From NCBI GenBank assembly GCA_036930585.1, contig GCA_036930585.1_3066.1: a DNA stretch of 64,000 bases; one strand, given 5' to 3'. Positions 21,592-49,784 of this stretch are shown one piece after another (position 1 is the stretch's first letter; each line of letters opens with the position of its first letter). Made by a program: the position numbers and the translations under genes. A model generated the notes under the pieces. It saw nothing but the letters and a program-made list of their open reading frames with translations, was not told the origin of the DNA and did not search any database. This stretch comes from a phage.

Positions 21592-21622
21592 TTTTGAATA
21601 AATACCCCTAAAAGGAGGGTCT

Positions 21623-23768: not shown

Positions 23769-23876
23769 ATCTTTAGAATAATGACGAGCACCTGGAATAA
23801 TAAGAGTTCGTCCATCTTTTAATTTAAAACGGTTGGCTGCGCAGACAATTCGTCGTTGATACTTTTGGTTTTCATC

Positions 23877-24038
23877 TCAATACGCAGTCTGCCAACATAT
23901 TTCAGGAACTTCTTTCAGAACATCTTCTTCCGTATAATTAGTATAACCTGCTGATTTAAATTTTTCGGCTAAACTCTCTGGAGTCTCACGAGATAATGCA
24001 ACGTTTAGCATTTCAAGTCTTTCTTCAAATGTTTTCAT
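23877..24038 (-). CDS. Hypothetical small protein (53 aa)
   Basis: ATG 24038 overlaps upstream stop as ATGA; [11 protein letters not shown]... Confidence 0.35.
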
Positions 24039-24379
24039 TTAAACCATTCCTTAATACGCTGCCACAAAGTTTTCTGATGAGCTTTGTTAACACCAATTGA
24101 ACAAATAACTGATTGAGATTCCTGGAATTCTTTATAATCAGCAAGGTAAATTTCGTAAGCTGCATCCGTAAATGAACTTATCGCTGCCATAAAGTTTTTA
24201 CGTACACCGCCTGGAGCTACTCCATTAGGGAATTCGGAATTTTCGAGAATAATTAAATATAACCCAGCTCTAACTTTAACGATAGTTCCAAGATAAGCCC
24301 CGTGGTACCAGATATCCCACCCCTCTTGAGTGGGTTCTGCACAACGACGAAGTTCATTAACAATTTCTAACTTGTTCAT
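24035..24379 (-). CDS. Hypothetical protein (motA.1-like, 114 aa)
   Basis: ORF track. Confidence 0.55.
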
Positions 24380-24389
24380 TATTTATTCC

Positions 24390-25025: not shown

Positions 25026-25062
25026 TTTAATCTCCGTTTCAGTTCATTTATTTGATAGTTGT

Positions 25063-25092
25063 ATAGTACCACAGTATGCTTTGGTTGTAAAC
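25063..25092 (-). promoter_or_regulatory. T4-type early promoter upstream of motA
   Basis: Minus strand GTTTACA-17nt-TACTAT with AAAATTTTTCACAAAAC upstream element. Confidence 0.6.
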
Positions 25093-25110
25093 CGTTTTGT
25101 GAAAAAATTT

Positions 25111-25143
25111 TTGAAATAAAAAAGGGAGAGCCGAGGCTCTCCC
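25111..25143 (-). terminator. Intrinsic terminator downstream of gene 52 cluster
   Basis: GGGAGAGCC/GGCTCTCCC stem then UUUUUUAUUU on minus strand. Confidence 0.6.
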
Positions 25144-25148
25144 TAAAA

Positions 25149-25298
25149 TTACTGCATGACTGTGATAACTATCATGATAACACGTTGAATTCCGAACGCA
25201 AGAAGACCTCCTGCTACGGCAGGAACAACACCTAAACCCGCCAGTAAAATGCCACCAGATACTAATGCAGCGCTTGTGATACCAATGAATGGACTCAT
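25149..25298 (-). CDS. Small hydrophobic membrane protein (49 aa)
   Basis: ATGA-coupled to gene 52 stop; MSPFIGITSAALVSGGILLAGLGVV... Confidence 0.4.
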   Translation of the reverse strand: MSPFIGITSAALVSGGILLAGLGVVPAVAGGLLAFGIQRVIMIVITVMQ

Positions 25299-26623: not shown

Positions 26624-26627
26624 AAAT

Positions 26628-26768
26628 TTACCATACTAGTGAATGTAGTGCCATAATAACATCAGAAATGAAAAGCACGACTTGAATTAATCCGAACATT
26701 ATTCCGTAATATAATGCTATCAATAAAATAGCAAGGGCTAATGAATAGCCCAAGATTTTCTTAATCAT
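26628..26768 (-). CDS. Small membrane protein (46 aa; possibly ac-like)
   Basis: MIKKILGYSLALAILLIALYYG...; not in track (<60 aa). Confidence 0.35.
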   Translation of the reverse strand: MIKKILGYSLALAILLIALYYGIMFGLIQVVLFISDVIMALHSLVW

Positions 26769-26919
26769 TAGTAGATAACAACACAAATGTTAAATATGCA
26801 CACATACCCTGGGCTAAAGCTTGTGAAAACACACTGCTAGCATCGATACAGATAGTTAAAACACATGCTACTATCCAACAAATAAATGAAATAACTCCTA
26901 ATAATTTTGCGATATTCAT
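26761..26919 (-). CDS. Small membrane protein (52 aa)
   Basis: MNIAKLLGVISFICWIVACVL... with GAGGAAAATATG SD. Confidence 0.35.
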   Translation of the reverse strand: MNIAKLLGVISFICWIVACVLTICIDASSVFSQALAQGMCAYLTFVLLSTND

Positions 26920-26926
26920 ATTTTCC

Positions 26927-27007
26927 TCACTGGCGTCCGAAGACGCCTTTAGTTTTAAGATTATTACGATAGAACTGCATCACGTGTTCGTTGTGGAAAT
27001 TACTCAT
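26927..27007 (-). CDS. stp: Stp peptide (26 aa)
   Basis: Reads [26 protein letters not shown], the T4 Stp sequence as recalled; start overlaps ndd stop. Confidence 0.7.
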
Positions 27008-27465
27008 TAATATGCCTGCAAAACGAATTTAAAATTATCAGCCAACATACGGTTCATTTCTTCAAGTGTTTGATACTCAGAATGATGATTACGAGTAAAC
27101 GCTAAAGCTAGCTGTCCTTTTCCAAATCCCGTCGTCAGAGGTTTCATCTTAGAAGCAGGCAGATAAAATACTGTGTATACCATATTGTTATTTGCAATAG
27201 TACGTGCAAGCTGAGACCGACGTTGACGAATATGACTTAGAACTGCACTGAATCCTTGCTTAGAACGCTGATTACCTACATAAAATCGTGCAGACACGCA
27301 TGGATTACTAAATGGACGACCATCTAATTTACTCACTAAAAAGTAAAATCCAGGTTTAGATAAAAAGTCTTTATGCGGAGTTCCCAAAAACCATTCACCG
27401 TTCTTGATTGTACCAATAACAGTAGCGCCTGCATTATTCAAATCAGTAACAGTCATGTATTTCAT
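27007..27465 (-). CDS. ndd: Nucleoid disruption protein Ndd
   Basis: Start at ATG 27465 ([16 protein letters not shown]...) with GAGGAAA SD; ~151 aa. Confidence 0.85.
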
Positions 27466-27525
27466 ATTAATTTCCTCTAAATTATTTTCTACTCCAAGGC
27501 CGCATGAATACACACGGCCATTAAA

Positions 27526-27741
27526 TTAATCGTCGCAGTCGACGCTCAATTCCCAAAACTCTTCTACGGTATAAGTTTCAGTATCATTTTCAATACAGAA
27601 ACGTTCATTACTGTTATTTGCTAAAGTAGCATTAACTGTCGGTTTCTCGCTAGTGCTCTTAAGAGGTGAAATACGAATTAACTGATCACCGTTATCTAAA
27701 CAGAAAATTTCACCAACTTTTACATCTTTAAAGATTTTCAT
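27526..27741 (-). CDS. Hypothetical protein (71 aa)
   Basis: ORF track. Confidence 0.5.
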   Translation of the reverse strand: MKIFKDVKVGEIFCLDNGDQLIRISPLKSTSEKPTVNATLANNSNERFCIENDTETYTVEEFWELSVDCDD

Positions 27742-27749
27742 AATTCACC

Positions 27750-27860
27750 TCAAGGAATATAAAATCCGAATGCAGTTGTTGACCATCCCATCCAATATGG
27801 GAAATTTGCACCAATGTAAAACATGAGAATATAAAACCAACCGCTCAGCAAATTCATCAT
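27750..27860 (-). CDS. Small hydrophobic peptide (36 aa)
   Basis: MMNLLSGWFYILMFYIGANFPYW...; ATGA-coupled to upstream ORF. Confidence 0.3.
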   Translation of the reverse strand: MMNLLSGWFYILMFYIGANFPYWMGWSTTAFGFYIP

Positions 27861-28075
27861 TTTACACCATTCCAAATTGTTTCAACCACGGATTTTAAAC
27901 CATTTTGATGAATATCAATTCCGACTACCGTCATCAAATAAATTCCAACTACAACTGAACCTAAGGCAAAAATCAGCATGAAAATGAATAAAGCCGGAAA
28001 AATATTATCGAAAAACCATTCAATAAATGTAAAAGCACTGCGTTTACGCTTCATATTTTCCTCACATAAATCCAA
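27857..28075 (-). CDS. Small membrane protein (72 aa)
   Basis: ORF track; two hydrophobic segments. Confidence 0.45.
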   Translation of the reverse strand: MDLCEENMKRKRSAFTFIEWFFDNIFPALFIFMLIFALGSVVVGIYLMTVVGIDIHQNGLKSVVETIWNGVK

Positions 28076-28175
28076 AGTAAACGTTTAATACATTAATCAT
28101 TAAAACGATTGGGAATATACTCAAAACTATTAGTATTATAACTACATTCCATATAGCTTTAACAATCTTTTTCAT
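28062..28175 (-). CDS. Small membrane protein (37 aa)
   Basis: Start moved to ATG 28175 with CGGAGGAACAGAAA SD; track extension overlaps promoter. Confidence 0.35.
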   Translation of the reverse strand: MKKIVKAIWNVVIILIVLSIFPIVLMINVLNVYFGFM

Positions 28176-28203
28176 TTTCTGTTCCTCCGTAGTTGATAGG
28201 GTA

Positions 28204-28233
28204 ATAGTACCACGGAAGAACAGTCTTGTAAAC
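28204..28233 (-). promoter_or_regulatory. T4-type early promoter
   Basis: Minus strand GTTTACAAGACTGTTCTTCCGTGGTACTAT. Confidence 0.5.
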
Positions 28234-28418
28234 AACTTTTTTAAAAATATTCGTAATAAATGTGAATACCAACTACTACTGCCGAAACTTGTGCAACCCA
28301 CCATGCACACGCAATAAGTACAGAATTCAAAATTTTCATAATAACCTCATCACAAAAGTAAATGTTAAACAAATTACTGGAATACTAATTAACCAAACAA
28401 AACACCAACATAATGAAC

Positions 28419-33231: not shown

Positions 33232-33763
33232 TACTGGCTCATCCATTCTTTACGAAGGTCAGCATTATCTCCCATGAGCATTTCAAAAAGTTCTTTCCAA
33301 TTCTCAGGAAGTTTAACAACATCATATACTGGATTTTGAATCATCTCACGATATTCAGATTTTTCCAAAGAGCCAAGTCCTTTAATATAACGGATGCTAT
33401 GTTTAGGTAGAGCATCTTTGGCACTCTCATATTCAGCGACTGTATAAAACCATTCTTGTTTTTTACCGACCTGAGCGATGATTACAGGAGTTTTGACGAA
33501 GCGAATTCTTCCTTGTTCAAACAGTTCTGGCCAATTACTAAAAAATCCGAGCAGAGAAGGATAAATAGAACCTAATCCAATAATCTCTTAATTATGAGGT
33601 ATTTCTATAGATAGCCCGAAGGCTATCCATCGTGATCTGCGTCTGTCATAATAGCGACATTCGCATAGTTCATTGAAGAGGATTTAATAGAACGACGAAC
33701 ATTGTTCTGCAATTTATATTTTTTCATATCAACGCTAGAAGAATCAATTTTTACAAATTTCAT
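33231..33763 (-). CDS. 60: Topoisomerase II subunit gp60, with 50-nt translational bypass
   Basis: Codons 1-46 (MKFVKIDSS...TDADHDG) end at GGA 33628..33626 followed by TAG; translation resumes at UUA 33575..33573 (LGSIYPSLLGFF...) to stop 33233..33231. Confidence 0.85.
33576..33625 (-). promoter_or_regulatory. Gene 60 coding gap (bypass element): take-off GGA, stop UAG, UUCG-loop hairpin, landing GGA
   Basis: GGA UAG CCUUCGGGCUA UCUAUAGAAAUACCUCAUAAUUAAGAGAUUAUUGGA UUA read directly from the minus strand. Confidence 0.85.
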
Positions 33764-34562
33764 TATACACCTCATAGAACTTTTCATCAGGAATCCAACC
33801 GCGTTTAAATTCATTAAATGCTCGGCCGAATAATTTTGAATTCACAGTTATATTATTAACTGATTTCCATTTAGCAACTCCCGTTCGTTTATAATGATCG
33901 GGGTCATATTTCGTGACGTACCATTCATATAAATTTGGTATTAATTTTACAGCCTCTGGATTTGTCGCTGATTTATTATACCATGGTTTCGCTTTTTCAA
34001 GTTCAGCTGCTTTTGCAGTAGCAGCAACAGTATTTCCAATACCAACTAATTTTTCAGCTTTAATGCGTGGGTCATTAACATGAAGACGAAAAACTTCGCC
34101 TTTTTCATTTTTAAAGCATGTCATGCCTTTAATTCCAGGAAGCTTAACACCTTTATTAACGCCGCACCATTCCTTTGGGTTAAATGATCCTTTAATTAAT
34201 AAGGCGCATTTACCCGATTTAATACTTCTCATTAAAACTTTATTTTTCATAAAGTTTTTTGACCATTCAGATACTGCTCTTTGATGGTAAATTCTAGCAA
34301 TTTCATATAATTTACTAGAACGTAAATATTTTTCAGTGTTTAACATTCTATTCATCGCATATGCCATTTCACGATTACGATGAATTTTATATAGTAGAAA
34401 ATGTGCTAAAAAGTGTTCACGAAAAGTCAGTTTCACCAAATTTTCTTTATCATCAGAACCTCCCATTGATCTTGGAAGGATATGATGAATTTCACCCTTA
34501 AATTTAGAAACGCGGGTTTTACCCCGCGCTATTAAGTCATTATAGATTTTTTCGTAATTCAC
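33744..34562 (-). CDS. mobA: HNH homing endonuclease MobA (272-aa ORF; start uncertain)
   Basis: Free-standing ORF between 39 and 60, overlapping both; HNH-like HH...N...H region (EIHHILPRSMGGSDDKENLVKLTFREHFLAH). Confidence 0.7.
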   Translation of the reverse strand: MNYEKIYNDLIARGKTRVSKFKGEIHHILPRSMGGSDDKENLVKLTFREHFLAHFLLYKIHRNREMAYAMNRMLNTEKYLRSSKLYEIARIYHQRAVSEWSKNFMKNKVLMRSIKSGKCALLIKGSFNPKEWCGVNKGVKLPGIKGMTCFKNEKGEVFRLHVNDPRIKAEKLVGIGNTVAATAKAAELEKAKPWYNKSATNPEAVKLIPNLYEWYVTKYDPDHYKRTGVAKWKSVNNITVNSKLFGRAFNEFKRGWIPDEKFYEVYNEICKN

Positions 34563-36093
34563 CTACTGTTATCCATTTACCATTAATCTGTACTTCATCA
34601 TTTTCATTTACGATAATTGTATCGCCATTTAGTTCGAAAGTAAACCACTCGCCATCTTCTTTTTCTTCAAACGCCTTTTCACCGAGAACTAATCCAGTGA
34701 TTGCGCAAATATCAAACAATTCTTTGTTTTTAAGCATATCAGCATATGACATACCCCAACTGTTGAGAACTTTACCGCGCAATGGATAACCACCATGAAG
34801 TTCTTTATCACGAACATCAATAAGATATCCGATAGCAGAATCACCCTCAGTCAAGAAAAGAGTAGTGTCAGCATCTTTACCGCAAAGATTCGCTTTAATG
34901 TGTTTATGAACCTTAGCTTTAGAAGCCTTTTTAGCTGCTTTAGTTTCTGCTGCCTTTTCTGCCGCCAATTTACGAGCCAAAGCAGCTTCAATAATCGGCA
35001 TTAGAATTGCTTCATTATTTAGAATAGCACGTGAAATCTTTTTAGCATCAAGTTGAATATGACTACGGATTTCACCAAATGGAGAAGTCAAACGCTCTTT
35101 AGTTTGAGAATCAAATCGCATGTTTTTCATATCACGGACAAACATAACGATAGTCAAACATTCTTTAACGCGTGCTTTAGTCACATCAATTTTGAACTTA
35201 CGTTTGATTTGTGGAATAAGGTCTTCACAAATATCATCCATAACACAGTCAATGTGATGGCCACCATTCTTAGTGTGAATGTTATTCACATAAGTTAATT
35301 GACGAAAACCATCCGGTGAACGACCAACCGCAATAGAGCAATTTTCTTGTTCTTGAACGATAGCATGTTCATCATATTGGCGTGCATATTTCTTAAAATT
35401 GCCCTGAACCTTTTTACCATTAAAGGTAAATTGAATATCAGGATAAACTACTGCAAGTGTCTGGAGACGATCTAGTGTAATGTCAAGATAAACTTGGGAC
35501 AGCTCATTAGTTTCAAATGACATAAAATCAGGAATGAAAGTAACACGAGTTCCTTTCCATTTTCCAGGAATAGTTTCCCATGATTTATTTTCCATGCCAT
35601 TTGAACAACGAACTACAATATTATTTTGACCATCACCAGTTTCACCGACAAACATCACAGAAAAAATGTTTGTCAAACTAGAACCAACACCATTCATACC
35701 ACCGGTGACACGTTCTTTATCATCACCAAAGTTACCACCTGCTTTTGGAATAGTCCAGGCAGCAACAGGACCAGGAATTTCTTCACCAGTAGGTGTTTTG
35801 ACCATCGCTTGTGGAATACCGCGACCGTTATCTTCAACTGTTACTTGATTGTTTTTAATAGTAACATTAATTTTATTTGCGAATTTAAACTTAGTACGAA
35901 TACCTTCATCTACTGAGTTATCGATAATTTCATCAATAAGCTTAACAAGACCAGGTACATACTGAACACTTTCCCATTTACCAAACAGAAAGCGCTCATG
36001 CATTTCATTAGCAGAAGAGCCAATATACATGCCGCTACGCTTTTTGATATGTTCAATATCGCTCAGAATTTTAATTTCATTCTTAATCATCAC
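34540..36093 (-). CDS. 39: DNA topoisomerase II large subunit gp39 (ATPase)
   Basis: 517-aa ORF with GHKL ATPase motifs (IDNSVDE, GxxGxG). Confidence 0.95.
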   Translation of the reverse strand: MMIKNEIKILSDIEHIKKRSGMYIGSSANEMHERFLFGKWESVQYVPGLVKLIDEIIDNSVDEGIRTKFKFANKINVTIKNNQVTVEDNGRGIPQAMVKTPTGEEIPGPVAAWTIPKAGGNFGDDKERVTGGMNGVGSSLTNIFSVMFVGETGDGQNNIVVRCSNGMENKSWETIPGKWKGTRVTFIPDFMSFETNELSQVYLDITLDRLQTLAVVYPDIQFTFNGKKVQGNFKKYARQYDEHAIVQEQENCSIAVGRSPDGFRQLTYVNNIHTKNGGHHIDCVMDDICEDLIPQIKRKFKIDVTKARVKECLTIVMFVRDMKNMRFDSQTKERLTSPFGEIRSHIQLDAKKISRAILNNEAILMPIIEAALARKLAAEKAAETKAAKKASKAKVHKHIKANLCGKDADTTLFLTEGDSAIGYLIDVRDKELHGGYPLRGKVLNSWGMSYADMLKNKELFDICAITGLVLGEKAFEEKEDGEWFTFELNGDTIIVNENDEVQINGKWITVGELRKNL

Positions 36094-37610: not shown

Positions 37611-37779
37611 AATTTCCTCATTAATTGAACATTGGAGCGATGCGTTTCAGAAGAGTAGCAGCACCTTTGGCAAATTTTCCATTTTATTCTCCAAGTTGTT
37701 TTCTGTATCAGTAGTTGATATTGATATAGTACCATAATCAACTACTGATGTATATAGTTTTATGAAAAAATTTTAAACT

Positions 37780-38271
37780 TTATGCATAGCGAGCTTTGCT
37801 GTAGTGTTTAATCCAACTTTCAGGAATGACTTTGTATGTTCCTAAAAATACCGCGTTGTATAACTTAACGCCATCTTCTACCCATTGATCAGTAATGTAT
37901 GCACACATAGCGCGAGTACGCCGAGGAAGTGGTTGTCCACCTTCGATAAATTCAAACTCATAAGGAGCAATGAACTTAATAGCTTGACCGAGTTTCCACT
38001 TAAAGTCTACACCTACATGCGAAGTATCAATCGTTTCAATTCCTTTAGCGGGAACAGCTTTCAAAAACGCAGATTCAAGAAATTTCGCGCGAACATAACC
38101 AAACTGAGGTTTAGACTTTCCATCTTTAGGAATGATACGCACTTTTACTTCAGAATCTTCATCTTTAACGCCGTGTTTAAGCTGAATGCTTACAATTTCG
38201 ACCAATTTTCCTGCTGCTTTAGAACGGGATTTATCAGATACACGAGCAATTTCACCAATATTAATAATCAT
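37780..38271 (-). CDS. motB: MotB (DNA-binding modifier of transcription)
   Basis: 163-aa ORF MIINIGEIARVSDKSRSKAAGKLVEIVSIQLKHG... Confidence 0.75.
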   Translation of the reverse strand: MIINIGEIARVSDKSRSKAAGKLVEIVSIQLKHGVKDEDSEVKVRIIPKDGKSKPQFGYVRAKFLESAFLKAVPAKGIETIDTSHVGVDFKWKLGQAIKFIAPYEFEFIEGGQPLPRRTRAMCAYITDQWVEDGVKLYNAVFLGTYKVIPESWIKHYSKARYA

Positions 38272-38316
38272 AGTTATCTCTCACTTGTTAAAAAGATTTT
38301 ATACTCCACAGGACCA

Positions 38317-38345
38317 TTATACTCTGGTCCCAAGAGTTTGTAAAC
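38317..38345 (-). promoter_or_regulatory. Early promoter upstream of motB (GTTTACA-17nt-TATAAT)
   Basis: Minus strand GTTTACAAACTCTTGGGACCAGAGTATAAT. Confidence 0.6.
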
Positions 38346-38347
38346 TA

Positions 38348-38893
38348 TTAATTCAAAATAGCTACCACCGCACTACGAGGTACTACACTAAAATCTCCTG
38401 CATGGACAACGTTCAGAAGCTCAACACCATCTTCAATCCACTGGTCTGTTACCCAACCACAGATAGGATTATCAAAAGGACGACGGATAGACACAGCAGC
38501 ACACAACAGGTCTGTAGGGTCTTGTTCTTCAACTTCTTGGAACAGGATGAACTCATCTTCATAAACCAGGTTTTTCTTTATTTTGTTATTATCTAACCGG
38601 CGACCGTGGATGACGTAAGATTTGTCAAACCACTCACTTTTGGCAAATTCTTCAACAATAAATTCGCCTTCGCCAAAAACATCAGTCAGAGTTTTATGAC
38701 CAGAAATCAAGGCATTAGTTTTAATTTTAGGTTCAACCAGTTTGTAGGTTTTGCCGATTTCAATAGCGGTAGTCATAGTAGGTTCCTTAATTTCCAGTGG
38801 TTTAACAGGGCATACATAAGTACTTACAACGTCAAAATCAATCAGTTTAGCTGCCGGATTCGGTGTGTATTCAGGATTATAATTAAATTTCAT
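38348..38893 (-). CDS. MotB paralog (181 aa)
   Basis: Shares C-terminal motif ..(Y/W)(I/V)TDQW(V/I)EDGV(K/E)L(Y/L)N(A/V)V.. with motB. Confidence 0.55.
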   Translation of the reverse strand: MKFNYNPEYTPNPAAKLIDFDVVSTYVCPVKPLEIKEPTMTTAIEIGKTYKLVEPKIKTNALISGHKTLTDVFGEGEFIVEEFAKSEWFDKSYVIHGRRLDNNKIKKNLVYEDEFILFQEVEEQDPTDLLCAAVSIRRPFDNPICGWVTDQWIEDGVELLNVVHAGDFSVVPRSAVVAILN

Positions 38894-38895
38894 AA

Positions 38896-39393
38896 TTATC
38901 TCATTTCAATAAAATCTACAAGTTCAGCATGGGATTTACGGAACATTACTTGATGCCCGCCAATGATAACTTGGTCATCTGGTACTTCGTATACAGCAAG
39001 ATAAAATCCTTTCGAAGCTAATTCTTCACGCTCTTCTCGTGTGAACCATCTCATCATATCATATTCGCTAGCGAAAGCAAAATGATAAAGAGCTATAAAC
39101 CATCCTGGAATATGATATTCTACTCCAACATAATCTTTCTTGAACTTAGTATTAATTACTATATTAGCGTTTTTAACTAATAGTTTATCTTCGTGTGGTA
39201 AAGGAATTCTTTTATTATCGCTATGATGCATAAAATTAGGTCTGTCATAACCTACGTGTAATAGCCACTCTTCGCTCCATGAATCTATTATACTCCTGTA
39301 CGGCGTTATTTGAACACAAAGATTTCGACGTATTGTTATAGCATCTTCACAATCAAGAATACTAAACGATGATTCAACACGATAAATTTTCAT
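38896..39393 (-). CDS. Hypothetical protein (165 aa)
   Basis: Start moved to ATG 39393 with GAGGATAATAAA SD; track extension overlaps promoter. Confidence 0.5.
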   Translation of the reverse strand: MKIYRVESSFSILDCEDAITIRRNLCVQITPYRSIIDSWSEEWLLHVGYDRPNFMHHSDNKRIPLPHEDKLLVKNANIVINTKFKKDYVGVEYHIPGWFIALYHFAFASEYDMMRWFTREEREELASKGFYLAVYEVPDDQVIIGGHQVMFRKSHAELVDFIEMR

Positions 39394-39420
39394 TTTATTA
39401 TCCTCAGTAGCTATGGTGTT

Positions 39421-39450
39421 ATAATACCACAACTAACCGAGGAAGTAAAC
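39421..39450 (-). promoter_or_regulatory. T4-type early promoter
   Basis: Minus strand GTTTAC...TATTAT. Confidence 0.45.
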
Positions 39451-39456
39451 AACTTT

Positions 39457-40140
39457 TTATCGTTTTGTTGGAAGAGATAGAGGATCGCAATCTTCCTCTG
39501 ATGGAGCATCTTCAAGACCCATAGCATATCGCAAAGCGTACTTCATCATCAGGATGTCTTTCGCACAGTCATGAATAGAATCATGCGCAACGAATCCATC
39601 TAAAGTTCCTTTTGGAAGAGGACACGTGGTCATATCACGAACAAGTAGAAGTGCTTCAATTCTGGTACGAATATCACGCTGATTCCAGAATTTACATGGT
39701 TCTAACTTAAATGTGTCAAGCTCATTCTCAGAAACACCATTAAGACGTTGAATATCACGAATGAGATCGACTAAAATTGGAAAATCAAACGACATTCCAC
39801 GGCACCAGCCTTGAGATTTCCAAGGATCGATATTATGTGCATTGATGTAATCATTAAATTTTGCAATACCATCGATAGTGCTTACATCTTCATCTGATGG
39901 TGCAATATTTTTTCGAGCTTCAGGAGATTGATTCTTCCACCATTCGATAGTGCTTTTAGTAAAAAGACGATGTCCTTTTTGGCTTTTTAAATCAAACTTG
40001 ATTTTAATGCCGCGTGAAACTAATTCATCAAATGTTTCAACTACTTCTGGATTAGGGTCAAAAGCAATTACAGCTAAATCAATAACAGCTGCTTTTTCAC
40101 CACTTCCCATTGTTTCAAAATCTATAATAAAATCAAACAT
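39457..40140 (-). CDS. dexA: Exonuclease A (DEDD-type 3'-5' exonuclease)
   Basis: 227-aa ORF MFDFIIDFETMGSGEKAAVIDLAVIAF... Confidence 0.9.
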   Translation of the reverse strand: MFDFIIDFETMGSGEKAAVIDLAVIAFDPNPEVVETFDELVSRGIKIKFDLKSQKGHRLFTKSTIEWWKNQSPEARKNIAPSDEDVSTIDGIAKFNDYINAHNIDPWKSQGWCRGMSFDFPILVDLIRDIQRLNGVSENELDTFKLEPCKFWNQRDIRTRIEALLLVRDMTTCPLPKGTLDGFVAHDSIHDCAKDILMMKYALRYAMGLEDAPSEEDCDPLSLPTKR

Positions 40141-40382
40141 TAAATTTTCCTTGCTAAATCGCGAATTTGACCTACAGTATAATCTTGAATATAAACTTTA
40201 TTAATAGGTTCATCAATAAATTTTGCCATAGATTCAATATCTTTTTGTATTTCTTCAAGACTGTATACTATCTTTAAAGCTTTTTCGCGAATAGTAATAT
40301 TTTCAGGACCCTGATTTTCTTCAATGACAGCTTTAACATTTGTCATAAGAGATTTAAACTGGTACCAACTCAATTCAATCAT
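40140..40382 (-). CDS. Hypothetical protein (80 aa)
   Basis: ORF track. Confidence 0.45.
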   Translation of the reverse strand: MIELSWYQFKSLMTNVKAVIEENQGPENITIREKALKIVYSLEEIQKDIESMAKFIDEPINKVYIQDYTVGQIRDLARKI

Positions 40383-40635
40383 TAATAATCGCCTTATAAA
40401 GATAGCTAATTTCGCCTAAAATATAATCATTGATTGTAACAGTTTTCACTTCACCACAAAAGAATTCTAACGCAATTAAATCTCGTTCAATTTCTTCTAA
40501 TTGAAGCCTCAACTTACTAGATTCTATTTTTACAGTTTCACGATTTTTGCTATAAGCAATTTCATAAATTTCGCTTACTTTATCTTGAAGAAGATAAAAC
40601 TGATCTTTAGTTATTTCCACGAATAGCTTCCTCAA
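40375..40635 (-). CDS. Hypothetical protein (86 aa)
   Basis: ORF track. Confidence 0.45.
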   Translation of the reverse strand: MRKLFVEITKDQFYLLQDKVSEIYEIAYSKNRETVKIESSKLRLQLEEIERDLIALEFFCGEVKTVTINDYILGEISYLYKAIIND

Positions 40636-40641
40636 ATTTAA

Positions 40642-41961
40642 TCATACATAAAACACATCATAACGACCACGGGTTACACCAACATAAAGAAGTTGTTGAG
40701 CCAATTCAGCATCTGCATAATGAATACAAGGCGTATAAATGAAAGCACGGTCTACAGACATGCCCTGTGCTTTATGGAATGTTGATGCAGGAAGTGCTTT
40801 CACTTTACTAAACTGTGATTTAGCATCCCAAAAATCACTCCACGGGGCTTTTCCGCCTTTATTCCAATTTTTATAAGTTTCTGCCGTTTTACCTAAAAAT
40901 AGGTTAAACTTATACAGTTCTTCATCAGATGAAATTATTTTAATCTTTTCACGATAATATTCATCATCGCCATAAGTTTCTACTGTTAAATCCCAATGAC
41001 GAATTAAGTATTCTCCAGGAACACCACGAGCTTTAACAAACGTCGATGTATACTCTGCTTCTATAATACGAACTAATTGTCCGTTATTAAAAATAATTTC
41101 TGACACAGGCTTTCCATCAATTTTATATGTTTTAATTAATGGTTCCTGCATTACAATAATTTCACCGACAATAAAATCTTTATCAGTTTCAAAAATCTTT
41201 TTACGAATAATGCTATTTAACTTGTCAACAGATTTATTCGTAAATGCCATTACGCGATTTTCAAACAAATCATCTAGTGATTTTACGATTGAAAAATAAT
41301 TTACCATAAAATCGCGTAAAGCGGTATCACCTGTAAATCCACGTACTCCATGCCCGTCAACAATTTTATCATAAATCCACTTACCGTTACGAACGTCAGT
41401 AGCTACATCAATAATAGGAGCATTACTGCGTTTAACTTCAGTAAGTTCACACTGATAAAAATCTTTGTGTGTAAAGAATGGACTGATATAAGCAGTGTTT
41501 TCTCCTGGGTCAACAGGTCTAATTTGCTTATTATCACCTATTCCAATTATAGTACACCAAGGTGGAATAGTTGAAAGCAGAATTTTAAATAGCTTTCTAT
41601 CATACATTGACACTTCGTCGCAGATTAATACCCTGCATTTAGCTAAATCTGGTACTTCCTTCTGTTCAAAAAGAACGTTTTCTTCATACGTAACTGGGTT
41701 AATTTTAAGAATACTGTGAATAGTATTCGCTTCTTTCCCCGACAGTTTTGAAAGAATCTTTTTAGCTGCATGTGTAGGAGCTGCCAAAATGATACCAGTT
41801 TCGCCTGTTGATATTAAAGCTTCAATGATGAACTTAGTAAGAGTAGTCTTACCAGTACCAGCAGGTCCATTAATAGTTACATGATGTTTCTTTTCTTTAA
41901 TAGCCCTCATAACGATGTTAAAGGCATTTTTCTGGCCTTCGGTCAAATCATCAAATGTCAT
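40642..41961 (-). CDS. dda: Dda DNA helicase (SF1B)
   Basis: 439-aa ORF with Walker A GPAGTGKTT and SF1 motifs. Confidence 0.95.
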   Translation of the reverse strand: MTFDDLTEGQKNAFNIVMRAIKEKKHHVTINGPAGTGKTTLTKFIIEALISTGETGIILAAPTHAAKKILSKLSGKEANTIHSILKINPVTYEENVLFEQKEVPDLAKCRVLICDEVSMYDRKLFKILLSTIPPWCTIIGIGDNKQIRPVDPGENTAYISPFFTHKDFYQCELTEVKRSNAPIIDVATDVRNGKWIYDKIVDGHGVRGFTGDTALRDFMVNYFSIVKSLDDLFENRVMAFTNKSVDKLNSIIRKKIFETDKDFIVGEIIVMQEPLIKTYKIDGKPVSEIIFNNGQLVRIIEAEYTSTFVKARGVPGEYLIRHWDLTVETYGDDEYYREKIKIISSDEELYKFNLFLGKTAETYKNWNKGGKAPWSDFWDAKSQFSKVKALPASTFHKAQGMSVDRAFIYTPCIHYADAELAQQLLYVGVTRGRYDVFYV

Positions 41962-42269
41962 CGGAAAGTCCCTGCAATTGGAATACTAACAATACGCCCA
42001 GTATCTAGAATTCGTTGATATAATCTTTGTGTATCTACATCAGGCTTAACATGTTTAACTTCTATTTTATTAAACCAAAACTTGCGTGGAGTCTCAACTA
42101 ATCTTGGAATTCCCTTACCTAAAGCTAATCGATACTGCTCTTTGAGAGTAGTAAAAACTCTATCAGCAATCTCTCTTTCAAAAAACACAGCAGGACGATG
42201 TTCATCAAGTGGAACTGGCGCCGTAAATCCGTCTTTGTCTCGGTAAACTATCGCATATACATAAACCAT
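41958..42269 (-). CDS. Hypothetical protein (103 aa)
   Basis: ORF track; ATGA-coupled to dda. Confidence 0.5.
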   Translation of the reverse strand: MVYVYAIVYRDKDGFTAPVPLDEHRPAVFFEREIADRVFTTLKEQYRLALGKGIPRLVETPRKFWFNKIEVKHVKPDVDTQRLYQRILDTGRIVSIPIAGTFR

Positions 42270-42270
42270 A

Positions 42271-43017
42271 TTATCCTCGGATAAGTTTAAAAATTGAACA
42301 ATTTAGCGGATATCCTCTTTTCAGTTTAAGTTTATCAATAAAAGACAAGTTTTGATACCGCTCTACACCTTGAATAATTTTATCACACATATCATATTGC
42401 ATTTCTGCTTCTGACAGCTTTTTCACAGTTTTCCAATCCGAGCCTTTAAGAAGAACGTTCAATTTAACAACTTCAGCGCCTTCTGCTATACGAGAACCAT
42501 CAATACGTGCTTTAAGTGCTATAATCCTTAGCTTAATGTCAGAGGTCTGTTTTGATTTAGAAAGCTGAGAAATGTGTTCAATTCGGTTTTCACGTTTTTT
42601 CTGTATAGCTTTAATTTGATTATAAGTCTTTTTGATTTTAGCCCATTTCTTTTCATCTAAATTTAGTTTATGAACTTTTTTCGCAGATGAACGACCAATT
42701 CGCAAAGCAAATAAATCACGCTTTTCAATCAACTCTTCTAAAGTATAATCAGAACGAAATGTATTATACTTTTTCTTTACTGCAATAACATTCCCTTTAA
42801 TGTATCCAACGTTATTATCAAAACGTTCTAATGATAATTTCTCTCCTTCAATACGATTATCAAAAGGTTCTCCTGAATAGGCACAAACTTTTTGATCTAA
42901 AATGTTCTTAATGTAATTGAAGTCTAAGTTAAAATCTTTAGAACGTCTTTTTGCAGATGCCTGAGTATGCTCTAGACGACGTTTAATTTTACGAATTTGG
43001 TTATTAGATAGCTTCAT
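42271..43017 (-). CDS. srd: Srd (sigma-like/anti-sigma protein)
   Basis: 248-aa basic ORF between dda and modA. Confidence 0.7.
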   Translation of the reverse strand: MKLSNNQIRKIKRRLEHTQASAKRRSKDFNLDFNYIKNILDQKVCAYSGEPFDNRIEGEKLSLERFDNNVGYIKGNVIAVKKKYNTFRSDYTLEELIEKRDLFALRIGRSSAKKVHKLNLDEKKWAKIKKTYNQIKAIQKKRENRIEHISQLSKSKQTSDIKLRIIALKARIDGSRIAEGAEVVKLNVLLKGSDWKTVKKLSEAEMQYDMCDKIIQGVERYQNLSFIDKLKLKRGYPLNCSIFKLIRG

Positions 43018-43140
43018 ATTTTTCTCACATCTTACGGACGGTTAACTACTTATACTATAACATTTTTACCTTAACTTGTAAACAACTTTATGTAAAAATG
43101 CTTTAAAACTTTCATGGTATAATGAATCTAAGTCCTTCCA

Positions 43141-43743
43141 TTATAGATTAAATCCTTCAAAATCAAGAGTATAGATAGTGTATGTTGAATACTTTTTGTA
43201 CTCATATCTATCTGCAATTCTAAATACACTTCCAGCTGGTATCATTACTTCTTGTTCATCTGAAACTAATTCCATATTACGATAACGATGGCTATCCGGA
43301 AACTTAAAGTTTGGATTGTATTCTTTACAACGTAGAGCTTTTATAGCATACTCCTGGAAATTGAATACCATAGGAGCTTTGAATTCAAAAATAACTTGTG
43401 TGTTATACTCTAAACCGGAAGCAAAATGTAGAGCTATATTTTTATCATATGAAGCTGATACGACTTTATCAAATGTAATAATATCAATTCCTTGATTTAA
43501 TACTCGCTTAGTCTCAGCTGGAACACCTCTCCAAAGAGGTTTATCGTTTGGTTCCAAACGAGATTTGATTATTTCATTTAACCAAATATGGTCATCTGGT
43601 TTATTAGTAATACAATGAATTAAAAGTTCAATTTCAGATAAATTAAACCCTTCAGAAAGTAATTCTTCACGAATAGAAGCACGCACCGATGCATCCATTG
43701 ATTTGATTTTAAAATCTTTTAATTGCATTGCTGAATATTTCAT
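43141..43743 (-). CDS. modA: ADP-ribosyltransferase ModA
   Basis: 200-aa ORF; paralogous to adjacent modB. Confidence 0.8.
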   Translation of the reverse strand: MKYSAMQLKDFKIKSMDASVRASIREELLSEGFNLSEIELLIHCITNKPDDHIWLNEIIKSRLEPNDKPLWRGVPAETKRVLNQGIDIITFDKVVSASYDKNIALHFASGLEYNTQVIFEFKAPMVFNFQEYAIKALRCKEYNPNFKFPDSHRYRNMELVSDEQEVMIPAGSVFRIADRYEYKKYSTYTIYTLDFEGFNL

Positions 43744-44363
43744 TCAACTACCTCAATATCATAAACTTTAAATGTTCCAAATGAATCGTGTAATTTTTCT
43801 TTTGAAATAGAAGTTATTCTATACTTTCCAATTGGAATCATCCATTCTTGTTCACGCACAATCATCATTAAGTTATCAGTACGCTCTGAATCTAGCCCAT
43901 CAGTATCTTCATACGTGTACTTAAACTCAGTATTAGGAGAAGAAAGTATAATATCGCTGATATGGTCAGAATAATTAAAAGCTTTATCAGTTTTTAAGCG
44001 AAATATTATTTCAGTGAAATACTCAACATAAGAAAAACCACATGCTGTGTGCAAACTAGTAGTAAATGAATCTACCCTATTCGTTGAAAACACTTCTCCA
44101 ACTTGTAAATCTTTAATGAGTTCTTTTGTCGATTTTGATATACCACGATATAACTGATAAGGTGATTTAGTTAAATGCTTTTTAACGATTTTATTCAACT
44201 GCCGATGAAGAGCTTCATTCTTTTTAGCTTCCATACATTGCCAAAGAATTGACTGCTCAAAGTCAGTAAATTTTTCACAGACTTTTTTATACATATCATA
44301 TTGAAAATCAACGCTTTCAGCTTTTATAGATAACTGTTCAACATCTGCAAGATTAATAATCAT
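43740..44363 (-). CDS. modB: ADP-ribosyltransferase ModB
   Basis: 207-aa ORF ATGA-coupled to modA. Confidence 0.8.
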   Translation of the reverse strand: MIINLADVEQLSIKAESVDFQYDMYKKVCEKFTDFEQSILWQCMEAKKNEALHRQLNKIVKKHLTKSPYQLYRGISKSTKELIKDLQVGEVFSTNRVDSFTTSLHTACGFSYVEYFTEIIFRLKTDKAFNYSDHISDIILSSPNTEFKYTYEDTDGLDSERTDNLMMIVREQEWMIPIGKYRITSISKEKLHDSFGTFKVYDIEVVE

Positions 44364-44430
44364 GATAGCCTCCGTATACTTCAGAAGCTATCATATCATC
44401 GTTAGAAAGGAAAGTAAACAACTTTTTGAA

Positions 44431-44613
44431 TTATTTTGCCCAGGGAGCCCAAGGCGGAGGGTCAAGATGGTATGAAGCTAGTTCTTCTAGAAGAGCATCT
44501 GGGGCTTCAATTCCATAATTCTGTAATACTATACGGTACTCTTTCTTATAATCACTAGAATCATTCTGGTTATTCGTAGAATGATTATCTTCTAACATCT
44601 CAAATAAATCCAT
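44431..44613 (-). CDS. Hypothetical protein (60 aa)
   Basis: ORF track. Confidence 0.4.
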   Translation of the reverse strand: MDLFEMLEDNHSTNNQNDSSDYKKEYRIVLQNYGIEAPDALLEELASYHLDPPPWAPWAK

Positions 44614-44621
44614 ATTAATTC

Positions 44622-45092
44622 CTAGCGATAAAAACCAAATTGACGATTAGCTTCAATAATCTTTCTTTCTTCTTCGGACATTCTCCAACGTAGTCCAACA
44701 TCAAAATGAGCCCAGACCATCTTAACAAATGCATTTATATCTTTAATATCTTCAATAATGAATGTTTTACTTTTAGAAGGTTGACTCACTAATTTAACTT
44801 TATCATCTTCAAACAGGTCAAAAAGACCATATTCATGAGCTCTTTTATAGCCTTTAATAGTTAAAGCTTCAGAAGAAGAAAACGGTGAATCTGTATTCTG
44901 CAAAATATCTTCAGTATGCTTTATAATTAGAATAACATTTTCTGGATATTTTCTTTCTTTTATATCTTTAATTAAAAAATCCGGATTTTCTGCTAAAGGA
45001 ATAATTAATGAGCATTTTTTACCAAGAGTATTTACTGATTTACCTTCTTTAGACATGAATTCTACTGAATAATGTTTTGCTACTTCAATCAT
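44622..45092 (-). CDS. Hypothetical protein (156 aa)
   Basis: ORF track. Confidence 0.5.
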
Positions 45093-45249
45093 GTGATTTC
45101 CTTTTGCCTACTAATGGACCATCGGGAATTTTGTTTTCCTGGATATATTTCTCATTTTCTTCCATCATTTTACTGCCAATTTTAAGAAGCAAATCCAGTG
45201 CTTCATTTGCTTTTGCTTTAGCCTCTTCTAACGTTATATCTTTGTTCAT
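45085..45249 (-). CDS. Hypothetical small protein (54 aa)
   Basis: [21 protein letters not shown]...; ATGA-coupled upstream; not in track. Confidence 0.35.
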
Positions 45250-45449
45250 GATTTATCACCATAGATGTCTCTCATCAATTTAAGCGCTGAGCGTTCTAAT
45301 TTCTTTTCTTTCTCAGCACTAATCATTGATTTCATCCATTCTTCCGATTCGTTCTGCATTTCTTTATTTGCTTGTTCAACCCAACCATCGTCAATATACA
45401 TTGAGTTTGGTCTATTGAACCATTCAAGAATCTTCTTGGGAGCTTTCAT
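45246..45449 (-). CDS. Hypothetical protein (67 aa)
   Basis: ORF track. Confidence 0.45.
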
Positions 45450-45921
45450 TTATTTTACCTAAAACAATAGTAGGAGCATCGTCAAATTTATGAATTTTTA
45501 GTAAATTTGGATTTAACTTATTCCATAAAGAGGTAATAAAATATGATAGCGCACTTTCGTCCGTAATTATAAATTTATTTCCTTTATCTATTTTCCAATC
45601 ATATATTGAATCATATGAATAGAAGGATAACGGTTTATTATTATAATATGCTTCACTAACATCAATATAGTTAGATTTAGTAAATGCTTGAATTGCCATA
45701 AATGGAGAATTTTGTACAGTTTCAATAATTCCGATCTTTTTAAGTTTTATTTCAACATCTTCTGGAATTGGCATTGAAATAAAATCTTCTACTAGATACA
45801 TGTTATTGTCATATCTTTTATCAATCATTACTGCTACGGTAATTGGAACATCCTTGACAAACGCCATACTAATACTATTGATAGACATTTCAAACAAAAT
45901 TGCTTCCATAATTTTCCTCAA
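45424..45921 (-). CDS. Hypothetical protein (165 aa; mrh-region)
   Basis: ORF track. Confidence 0.45.
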
Positions 45922-46259
45922 TCACAAGATGTAGATGAACAACTAGAATCACAAGAACTTCCACATGAATCACCTGCCCATACGTGAACAGGAACATTTG
46001 TATCATATGAATCAGAACTAGACTGTGTTTTCTGTGCATTAGATGATGTAGTAGGTATTGACCAGCGCCAAGGATTTTTATAATATTCTTGGGCTTCTTC
46101 ATAAGTCATAGTAACTGCTTCTACTGTTCCATCTCCCATATAAACATACTCAACTACAGTTAAAGGAAGGTAGTCATTTGAAATAGGAACTACACCTTCT
46201 CCGGGAGTTGTAGAGAAAAAATCCGTAAAGAAACTTTTAAACCAATTAAAGATAAACAT
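45918..46259 (-). CDS. Hypothetical protein (113 aa, Cys-rich C-terminus)
   Basis: ORF track. Confidence 0.45.
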
Positions 46260-46465
46260 TACAAAAAGCCTCTTTTGAATTCAACTTGCTTCTCACCATA
46301 ATCATATCGAATCTCTGCATTAAATTCAACAGAACCATCTGCGTACATCATAAATGAATGCACAACAACTTCTGTAGACCATGGTTGTAGTTCATATTTC
46401 TTCATTACGTGTCGTGAAATGATAATATCTAAATCTTCATTCGGTTTAATCCAACGATTTAACAT
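46259..46465 (-). CDS. Hypothetical protein (68 aa)
   Basis: ORF track. Confidence 0.45.
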   Translation of the reverse strand: MLNRWIKPNEDLDIIISRHVMKKYELQPWSTEVVVHSFMMYADGSVEFNAEIRYDYGEKQVEFKRGFL

Positions 46466-46493
46466 AGCGCTCTCCTCTATAAGATAATTCTAT

Positions 46494-46523
46494 TATACCA
46501 TACTCATTTTGGAAAGTAAACCA
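46494..46523 (-). promoter_or_regulatory. Early promoter (GTTTAC -35, TGnTATAAT extended -10)
   Basis: Minus strand GGTTTACTTTCCAAAATGAGTATGGTATAAT. Confidence 0.5.
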
Positions 46524-46527
46524 TTTA

Positions 46528-46554
46528 AATGAAAAAGGACTCCCGAAGGAGTCC
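46528..46554 (-). terminator. Intrinsic terminator downstream of soc
   Basis: GGACTCC-UUCG-GGAGUCC then UUUUUCAUUU on minus strand. Confidence 0.6.
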
Positions 46555-46580
46555 TTGAATTATTAACCACCAGTTACTTT

Positions 46581-46808
46581 TCACAAATCTTCGTTTGCAG
46601 CAATCCATTCAGTACGCTGATTTTCTTCATATACAGTAGTATATGCTGCTTTTTCTGAAGGGAACGTCTGGTAATGAGCACCAGAAATTTTGTGAACGTC
46701 AGAATAAAGAGGGAAAGCTACTGAAATTTCCTTTCCTTTAATTTTCTTATTTCCATCTAATTTCTGCTCAAATGTTTTGATATTAACATAACCGCGAGTA
46801 CTAGCCAT
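46581..46808 (-). CDS. soc: Small outer capsid protein Soc, ending at a TGA five to six codons early
   Basis: MASTRGYVNIKTFEQKLDGNKK...AANEDL then TGA; frame continues AAA GTA ACT GGT GGT TAA (KVTGG*). Confidence 0.8.
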   Translation of the reverse strand: MASTRGYVNIKTFEQKLDGNKKIKGKEISVAFPLYSDVHKISGAHYQTFPSEKAAYTTVYEENQRTEWIAANEDL

Positions 46809-46876
46809 GTAATTCTCCTTTTATTTAAATTACATGATTATTTATAATAAATTCTCGCGGCTTTTAAGACGAGCTG

Positions 46877-47392
46877 TTAATAACCTCGGTCTTGACGTTC
46901 AAAATTATGTTTGTTTTTCAAATAATAAAGTTTAAAGATTTCTTCCGCATTCATTCCAAGGCCAGCAAACATATTTAATACGAAATGAAATATATCCACA
47001 AGCTCAAATTTAATTTCGAGCTGATCTTCTGGGGACATTTCATCAATGCGTTTTTCTTGCGCTTCAATATAACGTGCTTTCCATTTTTTCCAAACTGCCG
47101 ATGCATCTTTTTCACCACGTGACATTTCACCAAGAGAAGTCAGAAGTTCGCGGAATTCATCGTCAATGCAGTCTTTTTGTTCACGCATCCAAGAAACAAC
47201 ATCACCGGCAGTTTCTAATTTATCTGGATGATAGCAGTATTCGCGGTCATTTGCTAAACGAATCTGCAGAGATTTCTGCATGTCAAGCATTACCTGCAGC
47301 GGGTCTTTTTCATCACCGAGAATATCCCAATATTCATTTTGAGCTTTATCAGCGCCTTCGATCAGTTGACTACATTCGTTAAAGTAAGCCAT
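46877..47392 (-). CDS. 56: dCTPase/dUTPase gp56
   Basis: 171-aa product from ATG 47392 (MAYFNECSQ...). Confidence 0.8.
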   Translation of the reverse strand: MAYFNECSQLIEGADKAQNEYWDILGDEKDPLQVMLDMQKSLQIRLANDREYCYHPDKLETAGDVVSWMREQKDCIDDEFRELLTSLGEMSRGEKDASAVWKKWKARYIEAQEKRIDEMSPEDQLEIKFELVDIFHFVLNMFAGLGMNAEEIFKLYYLKNKHNFERQDRGY

Positions 47393-47427
47393 TATTTTTC
47401 CTTTCAATTCATTAATAAGTTAAATAA

Positions 47428-48240
<813 letters not shown>

Positions 48241-48342
48241 TCATTTATTGCAGCAAAAAACGAATTATATAATTCTTCATCATATGTATTTGATAGTAAT
48301 ACTAACACGTTTTGCGATAAATATTAATTTAAAGGAGGACAT

Positions 48343-48543
48343 ATGGCACAAAAATTAATGGCACTTGTTAATGCCATCAAAGGTAATAAAAAACGTATAG
48401 CTTTTACTATTTCTGCTATGATAGGAATTTTACTTTGGAATTTTGTTTTATCGCCAGTTGCTATTGCTCATGGTGTTAGTATTCCAGTAGTTACTCTTGA
48501 TACATTCGTAGATCTAGCATTTGCTTTAGTTGGGTTAATTTAA
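48343..48543 (+). CDS. Small membrane protein (66 aa), opposite orientation to flanking early genes
   Basis: AAAGGAGG SD 6 nt before ATG; two hydrophobic segments; stop overlaps gene 61 stop. Confidence 0.5.
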   Translation: MAQKLMALVNAIKGNKKRIAFTISAMIGILLWNFVLSPVAIAHGVSIPVVTLDTFVDLAFALVGLI

Positions 48544-49571
48544 ATCTTGGCATATTTAGATAACCGCATTTTAGCCATTAACCCCTGGGCAATATTATTT
48601 TTCATATATTCCACAATTTGTTCAGGGGTTGCACCTTCCTTTCTAATCATATCATTAACATCTTTTGATTTCCAGGGAGATTTATCCCAAAACATAACCC
48701 TTTCTCCTGCATCAACTAATTTAGTCATTCGCTTGATAGTGTCAGGGTGACGAGGTTCATTATCTAAAACCCACACTCGTCTATCTTTAAATGGAACAAC
48801 TTCTAGGTCTAATTGACCACCCGTAATAGCTATACCATTTTCAATAAAAAGTGAATCTATAGGTCCTTCTAGAACATATACATCACCATCTTTAACTCGT
48901 TCGACTCCATATATTTTTGTTGCCTCAGGATAAGCTTTGATGGTGATATATTTTTGAGGAGCATCTTTCTTTAATGCACGTCCTTGAAAAGACTCAGCTT
49001 TTCCGTTAGCATTATAAATTGGAATAACAAGACGAGGCTCAGGTGTTTCCTTTTTATATGTTCCTGGAGCTATACTATTAACTAATTTAGGCCATTCAGT
49101 TGTAAACCAAAGATATTTCCATTTATCCTTTGGAATACAACGAGCTTTTACATATTTTATAATTGGATGGTCTTCCGCCAATTTATCTAATCTGATGCAT
49201 GACGGAAGAGATTTAATTATTTTCTTCTCAGGTTGTTTAGGAAGTTCTTTAGGTTTTTCTACTGGACGACTTTTACCTTTTTCTTTTCTTATTTCAAAGA
49301 TATACTCACGATATAAATCAGGTTCAAACTCCTTTAAATATATTCCGATTGGTGCATGATAGTTACAGTTATAACAATGAATATTTCCTTCATTATTATC
49401 ATCGCCATAATACCATCCACGGGCTTTATTTTGATCGGTTTTTGAATCTCCACAAACGGGACATCTAAACCGTAATTTAAAAGTTGAACTATTATTTACT
49501 TGTGCGAATTTAGGTAAATGAGCCAATGCACGGTATGCAAACTCATTATCAATCCAAGGTATTGATGACAT
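48540..49571 (-). CDS. 61: DNA primase gp61
   Basis: 343-aa ORF with N-terminal zinc ribbon (CPVCGDS...CYNC) and TOPRIM region. Confidence 0.95.
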   Translation of the reverse strand: MSSIPWIDNEFAYRALAHLPKFAQVNNSSTFKLRFRCPVCGDSKTDQNKARGWYYGDDNNEGNIHCYNCNYHAPIGIYLKEFEPDLYREYIFEIRKEKGKSRPVEKPKELPKQPEKKIIKSLPSCIRLDKLAEDHPIIKYVKARCIPKDKWKYLWFTTEWPKLVNSIAPGTYKKETPEPRLVIPIYNANGKAESFQGRALKKDAPQKYITIKAYPEATKIYGVERVKDGDVYVLEGPIDSLFIENGIAITGGQLDLEVVPFKDRRVWVLDNEPRHPDTIKRMTKLVDAGERVMFWDKSPWKSKDVNDMIRKEGATPEQIVEYMKNNIAQGLMAKMRLSKYAKI

Positions 49572-49573
49572 TT

Positions 49574-49738
49574 TTACTCTTCTTTTTCTTTAGATTCCTC
49601 TTTTTTCTTTTTAGGAATCTGTTCAGGACCTTTATTTACTACAGCGCCTGACGTTGTTCCAGTAGAGATATTTTCAGGACTACCACCTGAATCTCCAGCG
49701 ACCATATCTTCTTTGATAAATTCTTTATATGTTTTCAT
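49574..49738 (-). CDS. Hypothetical protein (61.1-like, 54 aa)
   Basis: MKTYKEFIKEDMVAGDSGG...; TAATATG junction with upstream gene. Confidence 0.45.
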   Translation of the reverse strand: MKTYKEFIKEDMVAGDSGGSPENISTGTTSGAVVNKGPEQIPKKKKEESKEKEE

Positions 49739-49784
49739 ATTAACCTCTATTCATAAAAGCATTAAAAATTTGGTCATCAATAGA
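49736..49784 (-). repeat. 49-bp direct repeat, copy 1 (3' end of the 61.2-paralog plus RBS/start of 61.1)
   Basis: 37-nt perfect match plus 12 nt with 2 mismatches to 50094..50142. Confidence 0.85.

Follow-up and report, generated by a model that had tools for sequence, protein, structure and literature searches.

A private opal codon near the 3' end of soc in a Tequatrovirus genome, probably a recent lineage-specific mutation

T4 mutants defective in soc were reportedly described by Ishii and Yanagida in 1977. Amber and deletion alleles of soc are used in the hoc- soc- strains for T4 display. The protein Soc attaches to the expanded gp23* lattice and forms trimers at quasi-threefold axes, with a normal Soc:gp23* ratio of about 870:930. 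It is a dispensable clamp located between gp23* hexamers, to which it binds as a trimerising protein, and a capsid has about 870 copies; soc-null mutants grow normally and lose viability at pH 10.6, where Soc restores survival approximately 10^4-fold (PMC3012670, PMC9958956, PMC9546572). Soc-defective T4 is thus viable, but its capsid is less stable when pH and temperature are high (PMC3012670, PMC9958956). Premature termination of soc has also been observed in a wastewater isolate, vB_EcoM-fHoEco02 (MG781191), by comparison with a 99.96%-identical sister phage (PMC5981032). The authors credit small indels, whereas in our alignment the substitution CAG>TAG is the only difference.

We analysed a stretch of phage DNA of 64,000 nucleotides (the window), in which soc is terminated by an opal codon close to its 3' end. 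As in the T4 mutants, this is a nonsense mutation in a dispensable gene. However, the T4 mutants are null, whereas the late opal leaves 75 of 81 residues and the allele may be only hypomorphic; it also sits in a non-T4 Tequatrovirus, with a second substitution, E24K, beside it. The soc DNA of fHoEco02 is 99% identical to that of the window, but the stop of fHoEco02 is an early amber at codon 15 (CAG>TAG) and effectively null, whereas that of the window is TGG>TGA at codon 76, and the two are independent events. With the window stop, the long-known class of soc-defective T4-like phages gains a new allele. It carries little weight for basic biology, since soc is dispensable, phages null for soc were already known in 1977 and the literature contains a soc stop from a field isolate. 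No paper was found that connects Soc with premature stops in evolved phages.

The product of the 75-codon soc is MASTRGYVNIKTFEQKLDGNKKIKGKEISVAFPLYSDVHKISGAHYQTFPSEKAAYTTVYEENQRTEWIAANEDL, with the C-terminus ...WIAANEDL. A search of 5.8 billion proteins yielded 22 Soc homologues, all of which contain the PF16855 domain and the best of which is 93% identical to the window protein; comparison with T4 Soc from PDB by phmmer gave E-values from 4e-50 to 3e-49. The gene is flanked by gene 56 (dCTPase) and mrh.2, and the same neighbours are found in U115, Pinarejo, fFiEco06 and AR1. Upstream of soc there is an octamer TATAAATA, which we take to be a late promoter from the known T4 consensus. The candidate expression signals, that is, this predicted promoter and the Shine-Dalgarno box, are intact. 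An intrinsic terminator follows the gene, and a terminator is annotated at the equivalent place downstream of soc in G2540. As soc is the final gene of the transcript, the nonsense codon should be without polar effect. Homology, conserved position and expression signals (the promoter being a predicted one) place this gene in the Soc family, and what is missing is the C-terminal part of the family pattern, namely an aromatic or hydrophobic position 76 with five or more residues after it. The window soc is a truncated allele of a Soc gene and not a normal member of the family. The coordinates of all features are given in Table 1.

Table 1. Features of the soc locus and other sites of private change in the window
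Feature	Position	Strand	Basis or comparison
soc, truncated CDS (75 codons and opal stop)	46808..46581	minus	ORF list and translation
Premature opal TGA at ancestral Trp76 (TGG)	46583..46581	minus	alignment with five relatives
Stranded in-frame tail AAA GTA ACT GGT GGT (KVTGG)	46580..46566	minus	same as the last five codons of relatives
Ancestral soc terminator, tandem TAA TAA	46565..46563 and 46562..46560	minus	sequence
Second private soc change, GAA>AAA (Glu24Lys), base 46739	46737..46739	minus	alignment with relatives
Predicted late promoter, T4 consensus TATAAATA	46846..46839	minus	read from sequence; identical in relatives
Shine-Dalgarno box AAGGAG, upstream of ATG at 46808	46820..46815	minus	read from sequence; identical in relatives
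Intrinsic terminator hairpin AAGGACTCC-TTCG-GGAGTCCTT and T-run, just 3' of soc	46556..46535	minus	terminator scan
dam, -1 frameshift	47545 (dam 47428-48231)	minus	homopolymer A5 on coding strand; in Logan contig
arn.3, opal TGG>TGA at Trp54	23877-23879 (arn.3 23577-24038)	minus	Sf23 has TGG
Small ORF between nrdA and td, ochre GAA>TAA	4776-4778 (ORF 4635-4958)	minus	homologue U115_241
Dda S79N, ModA Q80R and T53I, unique missense	41726, 43505, 43586		alleles absent from phage records
gp38 deletion site; window without deletion (266 aa, 251 aa in Logan)	20853-20911 (gp38 20791-21591)	plus	Logan comparison

The soc region (401 bp) matched 493 phage records, none of which was identical, the best being 99.5% identical. 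It was aligned with the corresponding regions of Pinarejo, U115, fFiEco06, fHoEco02 and a T4 isolate (T4_ev240). Only two bases in the 401 bp separate the window from its closest relatives, both of them G>A on the coding strand within soc. The opal codon results from the change at 46581 (C>T on the plus strand) and has A as the +4 base. The annotated soc genes of Pinarejo, U115, fFiEco06 and T4_ev240 have 81 codons with TGG at codon 76, and T4 Soc in PDB entries 5VF3/7VS5 and 9MKB reads ...ANEDLWKVTG. A preliminary description of this DNA had placed the TGA at a tryptophan position of the T4 protein and proposed a G-to-A change, and both the near-identical relatives with TGG and the T4 protein in PDB bear this out. 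Its reading of the following frame as AAA GTA ACT GGT GGT TAA was also correct, positions 46563-46583 covering exactly the TGA through the ancestral TAA, and the loss that it had put at five or six residues amounts to six, residues 76-81 (WKVTGG). The KVTGG codons are translated only upon read-through of UGA: the truncated protein ends in ...TEWIAANEDL, and the read-through form in ...TEWIAANEDLWK. These codons are still identical to those of the relatives and the TAA TAA pair is intact, which points to a very recent event.

To assess the uniqueness of the alleles, we used 41-mers with the variant base in the middle, which forces any 28-base megablast seed to span it. The 41-mer with the TGA allele was found in none of 50,697 phage records, whereas the otherwise identical 41-mer with G was found in 161 records. 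The 41-mer with the E24K mutation also had no match in the phage record collection. No mutant 20-mer was found in IMG/VR, where the wild-type control matched only two contigs, this collection being too thin in close relatives. The soc TGA is a private derived allele, and neither a chance feature nor a shared polymorphism. Lysine at position 24 is native in 8 of the 22 database sequences, mostly more divergent homologues, and E24K is probably harmless, as judged from these sequences.

A look-up of the window Dda, which carries the unique substitution S79N, led to a Logan contig encoding it, SRR28171614_299, built from the reads of one SRA run. This contig (12,075 bp) is 100.000% identical to positions 37691-49765 of the window without a gap, so that the soc TGA and E24K, the frameshift in dam and the unique substitutions in dda and modA are all present in it. 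Two other contigs of the run, SRR28171614_270 and SRR28171614_148, are 100% identical to positions 1361-7996 and 19990-28379, respectively, except for a deletion in gp38 in the latter. It is an in-frame deletion of 45 nt (15 aa) in the gp38 adhesin, situated between 14-nt direct repeats GCTGGATGAGTCAA. This difference shows that the window sequence was not copied from the Logan assembly, and yet the TGA is present in both. The difference in gp38 also suggests that the population is heterogeneous at the receptor-binding protein, or that a sister sample was sequenced. Exact-product look-ups of the 75-aa Soc and the 200-aa ModA gave no match, although a Logan contig encodes both; these are false negatives and were given no weight. 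The soc TGA is almost certainly not an artefact of assembly or polishing. The Logan contigs may come from the same reads as the source genome of the window, and a systematic read-level error would then be conceivable; bubble popping in the assembly may also mask a wild-type minority at soc. Neither a citing paper nor sample metadata were found for SRR28171614.

The ORFs of relatives were compared with the whole window by tblastn, followed by codon-level checks. Together with the soc stop, the window has at least four unique mutations that disrupt genes. The opal codon in arn.3 splits the gene into ORFs of 53 aa and 64 aa; Sf23, which is 99.2% identical, has TGG at this codon, and the opal is reproduced in Logan contig SRR28171614_148. 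The ochre codon is codon 61 of a 108-codon ORF (approximately codon 48 from the annotated start in U115), is the sole difference from U115 over 327 nt and is reproduced in SRR28171614_270. The homopolymer run in dam, A5 in the window, is A6 in the relatives examined and A7 in Pinarejo, where dam is also split, and it looks like a slippage hotspot. The frameshifted dam product has 267 aa and an aberrant C-terminus, and an identical 41-mer was absent among 169 matching records. No phage record contained an exact match to the arn.3 opal, ochre or dam frameshift alleles.

A region of 12.4 kb around soc was screened against 12 relatives, and then against the whole phage collection by 41-mers. Five nonsynonymous substitutions (soc W76* and E24K, dda S79N, modA Q80R and T53I) and the dam frameshift are unique. 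Nine synonymous sites were private with respect to the panel of 12 relatives, and at least seven of them occur in other phages. The unique changes are thus almost all nonsynonymous, which is a signature of recent, unpurged mutation. Among the seven unique substitutions that were characterised there are six transitions, and GC>AT changes account for five of the seven. A mutation spectrum derived from four relatives only was discarded, as it was dominated by ordinary mosaic polymorphism with no C>T excess, and only the panel of 12 relatives together with the 41-mer tests across the collection singled out the unique changes. Another argument, that the four disruptions all fall in dispensable genes and hence are real, was also set aside: the probability is about 0.16 if approximately 37% of the window is essential (an estimate from knowledge of T4), and thus this argument is not decisive.

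One possibility is that the phage truly has TGG and the TGA is an artefact of sequencing, assembly or polishing. The allele is a singleton, both soc substitutions extend an A-run (TGGAAAG>TGAAAAG and TTGAAGG>TTAAAGG), and the homopolymer-length frameshift in dam lies 1 kb away; besides, modified cytosines of T-even DNA can disturb some sequencing platforms. However, the three Logan contigs match the window at every unique change, although they were assembled separately from raw reads, as seen from the gp38 deletion. The single frameshift among the ORFs surveyed across 64 kb argues against an error-prone assembly, no stop or frameshift was flagged in gp34-37, gp43, gp41, gp61 or gp32, and the arn.3 TGA and the ochre codon are outside homopolymer contexts. 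We consider an artefact very unlikely. Even less likely, and in effect refuted already, is a natural short form, that is, a T4-like clade whose Soc ends at ...NEDL, even though the C-terminal tails of homologues do differ in length and sequence. Such a clade would be expected to show the allele in some record, and none has it; the unchanged codons after the TGA and the intact TAA TAA point to a very recent event instead. In the intact homologues position 76 is invariably occupied by W, Y, F or L, with five or more residues after it, and shorter database entries are frameshifted or partial. The preliminary description had named natural Soc proteins ending at NEDL as the observation that would speak against it, and no intact one occurs among the 22 homologues. 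It had left open a real nonsense allele, a sequencing error and partial read-through, and the first of these is strongly favoured, the TGA being reproduced in SRR28171614.

If TGA were decoded as tryptophan, owing to a reassigned code of the kind known from genetic code 4 and certain recoded phages, an opal suppressor tRNA of the phage with a UCA anticodon or a suppressor host, full-length Soc would be the normal product. The tRNA clusters of T4-like phages can give rise to opal suppressors, and two independent in-frame TGAs, in soc and arn.3, are at ancestral Trp codons. On the other hand, 30 of the 91 ORFs with 60 aa or more end in TGA, among them those of DNA polymerase (gp43), nrdA, gene 52 and dda, and the survey revealed only these two in-frame TGAs, whereas under reassignment they would be widespread and TGA would not serve as a terminator. 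All 161 relatives with the matching local sequence have TGG; the third nonsense codon, a TAA that replaces a Glu codon, is beyond rescue by an opal suppressor; and no tRNA genes were found in the 64-kb window, the usual T4 tRNA cluster falling outside it. Since TGG is the only sense codon that a single G>A turns into a stop, two Trp>opal events are unsurprising under a G>A bias. Normal decoding as tryptophan is thus very unlikely, and equally small is the chance that the two opals, in soc and arn.3, are tolerated and perhaps even maintained because they are read efficiently as tryptophan through a suppressor tRNA in a T4-type cluster or a host with weak RF2. Were it so, full-length Soc would be made in substantial amounts, and through these nonsense alleles the host would set the degree of capsid decoration, as with a dimmer switch. 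Of a different kind is an origin in the laboratory (chemical mutagenesis, serial passage, experimental evolution or host-range training) instead of nature, as it is compatible with a genuine mutation. The load of unique, mostly nonsynonymous changes is unusual, with three nonsense codons and one frameshift in 64 kb, and the reads are apparently heterogeneous for the in-frame deletion in gp38, a typical target of host-range selection. The unique knock-outs (soc, dam, arn.3 and the nrdA-td ORF), together with the gp38 heterogeneity, suggest a bottlenecked or laboratory-passaged stock. However, natural isolates also bear rare deleterious singletons, as exemplified by the soc stop of the wastewater isolate fHoEco02, and the GC>AT bias also fits spontaneous mutation. 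A laboratory origin is possible but less likely than not.

We conclude that the opal codon is, with good probability, a genuine lineage-specific TGG>TGA change in soc, a recent private mutation with probable loss of function. The G>A transition at Trp76 would have arisen in the Tequatrovirus stock sequenced in SRR28171614. It would belong to a set of recent, not yet purged point mutations of this lineage, mostly GC>AT transitions and almost all nonsynonymous; the three nonsense codons and the frameshift of this set all fall in genes that T4 can do without or for which no essential role is known. Translation would end six residues early, with the loss of Trp76 and of an ordered C-terminal segment.

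The structural context of the lost segment was considered using an AlphaFold model of a full-length homologue with 93% identity (mean pLDDT 83). Trp76 in the model immediately follows the C-terminal helix 62-74, and there is a beta-bridge at 78-79. Of the 80 residues of capsid-bound T4 Soc (5VF3, 9MKB), 79 are modelled, and the AlphaFold model superposes on all of these with TM of 0.91-0.94. Since nearly the whole protein is thus resolved on the capsid, the part deleted here is ordered in situ rather than a floppy tail. The ordered state of this segment and the conserved aromatic residue 76 suggest that the truncated Soc is probably hypomorphic or null. It may fold, bind or trimerise less well, and the phage would resemble soc-minus T4 in being fully viable but under-decorated, with less resistance to high pH and heat. 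However, N- and C-terminal fusions to Soc leave capsid binding unchanged (PMC3012670). Additions are thus tolerated at the very C-terminus, and the truncated protein might retain normal binding. A search of the literature gave no data on deletion of residues 76-81, and these residues are not discussed in the Soc reviews and a PNAS paper of 2022.

A low level of full-length protein may be retained. A context effect on UGA read-through by tRNA-Trp was reportedly described by Engelberg-Kulka in 1981. Read-through of UGA by Trp-tRNA-Trp is about 2-4% in E. coli K-12 (PMC10570021), and UGA followed by A is the context reported to be the most prone to misreading by tRNA-Trp (PMC5289835). By sequence context, a small fraction of full-length Soc would be expected from tryptophan read-through of UGA-A: roughly 1-5% of ribosomes might insert tryptophan and proceed for five codons to the TAA TAA pair. 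The read-through product would be authentic full-length Soc, Lys24 aside. This resembles the A1 read-through of phage Q-beta, where a leaky UGA is likewise read as tryptophan, the UGA-A of the window being expected to be misread at the percent level. However, the leaky stop of Q-beta is conserved and its C-terminal extension is functional, whereas the stop in soc is private and read-through just restores six ancestral residues. Programmed read-through would imply a leaky stop conserved in relatives, which have TGG, and a functional extension, whereas the five codons here are simply the ancestral C-terminus. No sign of selection for leakiness at the soc stop was seen.

In annotation, the gene should carry a flag as a truncated allele, so that it is not taken for a normal 75-aa Soc. 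Should the phage be a candidate for therapy or display, an under-decorated capsid could lower stability in storage, heat and alkaline conditions. The apparent bottleneck or passage of the stock is worth knowing before the genome serves as a wild-type reference.

Several other genes of the window are interrupted. The gene for the topoisomerase large subunit is split (33234-36090, minus strand), whereas U115, Pinarejo and fFiEco06 have a single gene 39. The insert of approximately 1.1 kb (33579-34671) contains an ORF of 240 aa (33744-34466), and the arrangement resembles the T4-type layout of gene 39, mobile endonuclease and gene 60 in 215Ecol030PP. The nrdB gene is split (555-1052 and 1650-2324) by an insert of about 600 nt, for which Rfam gave no call at the gathering threshold. 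As in T4, td contains a group I catalytic intron (Rfam RF00028, 70 bits; 5559-5840, minus strand).
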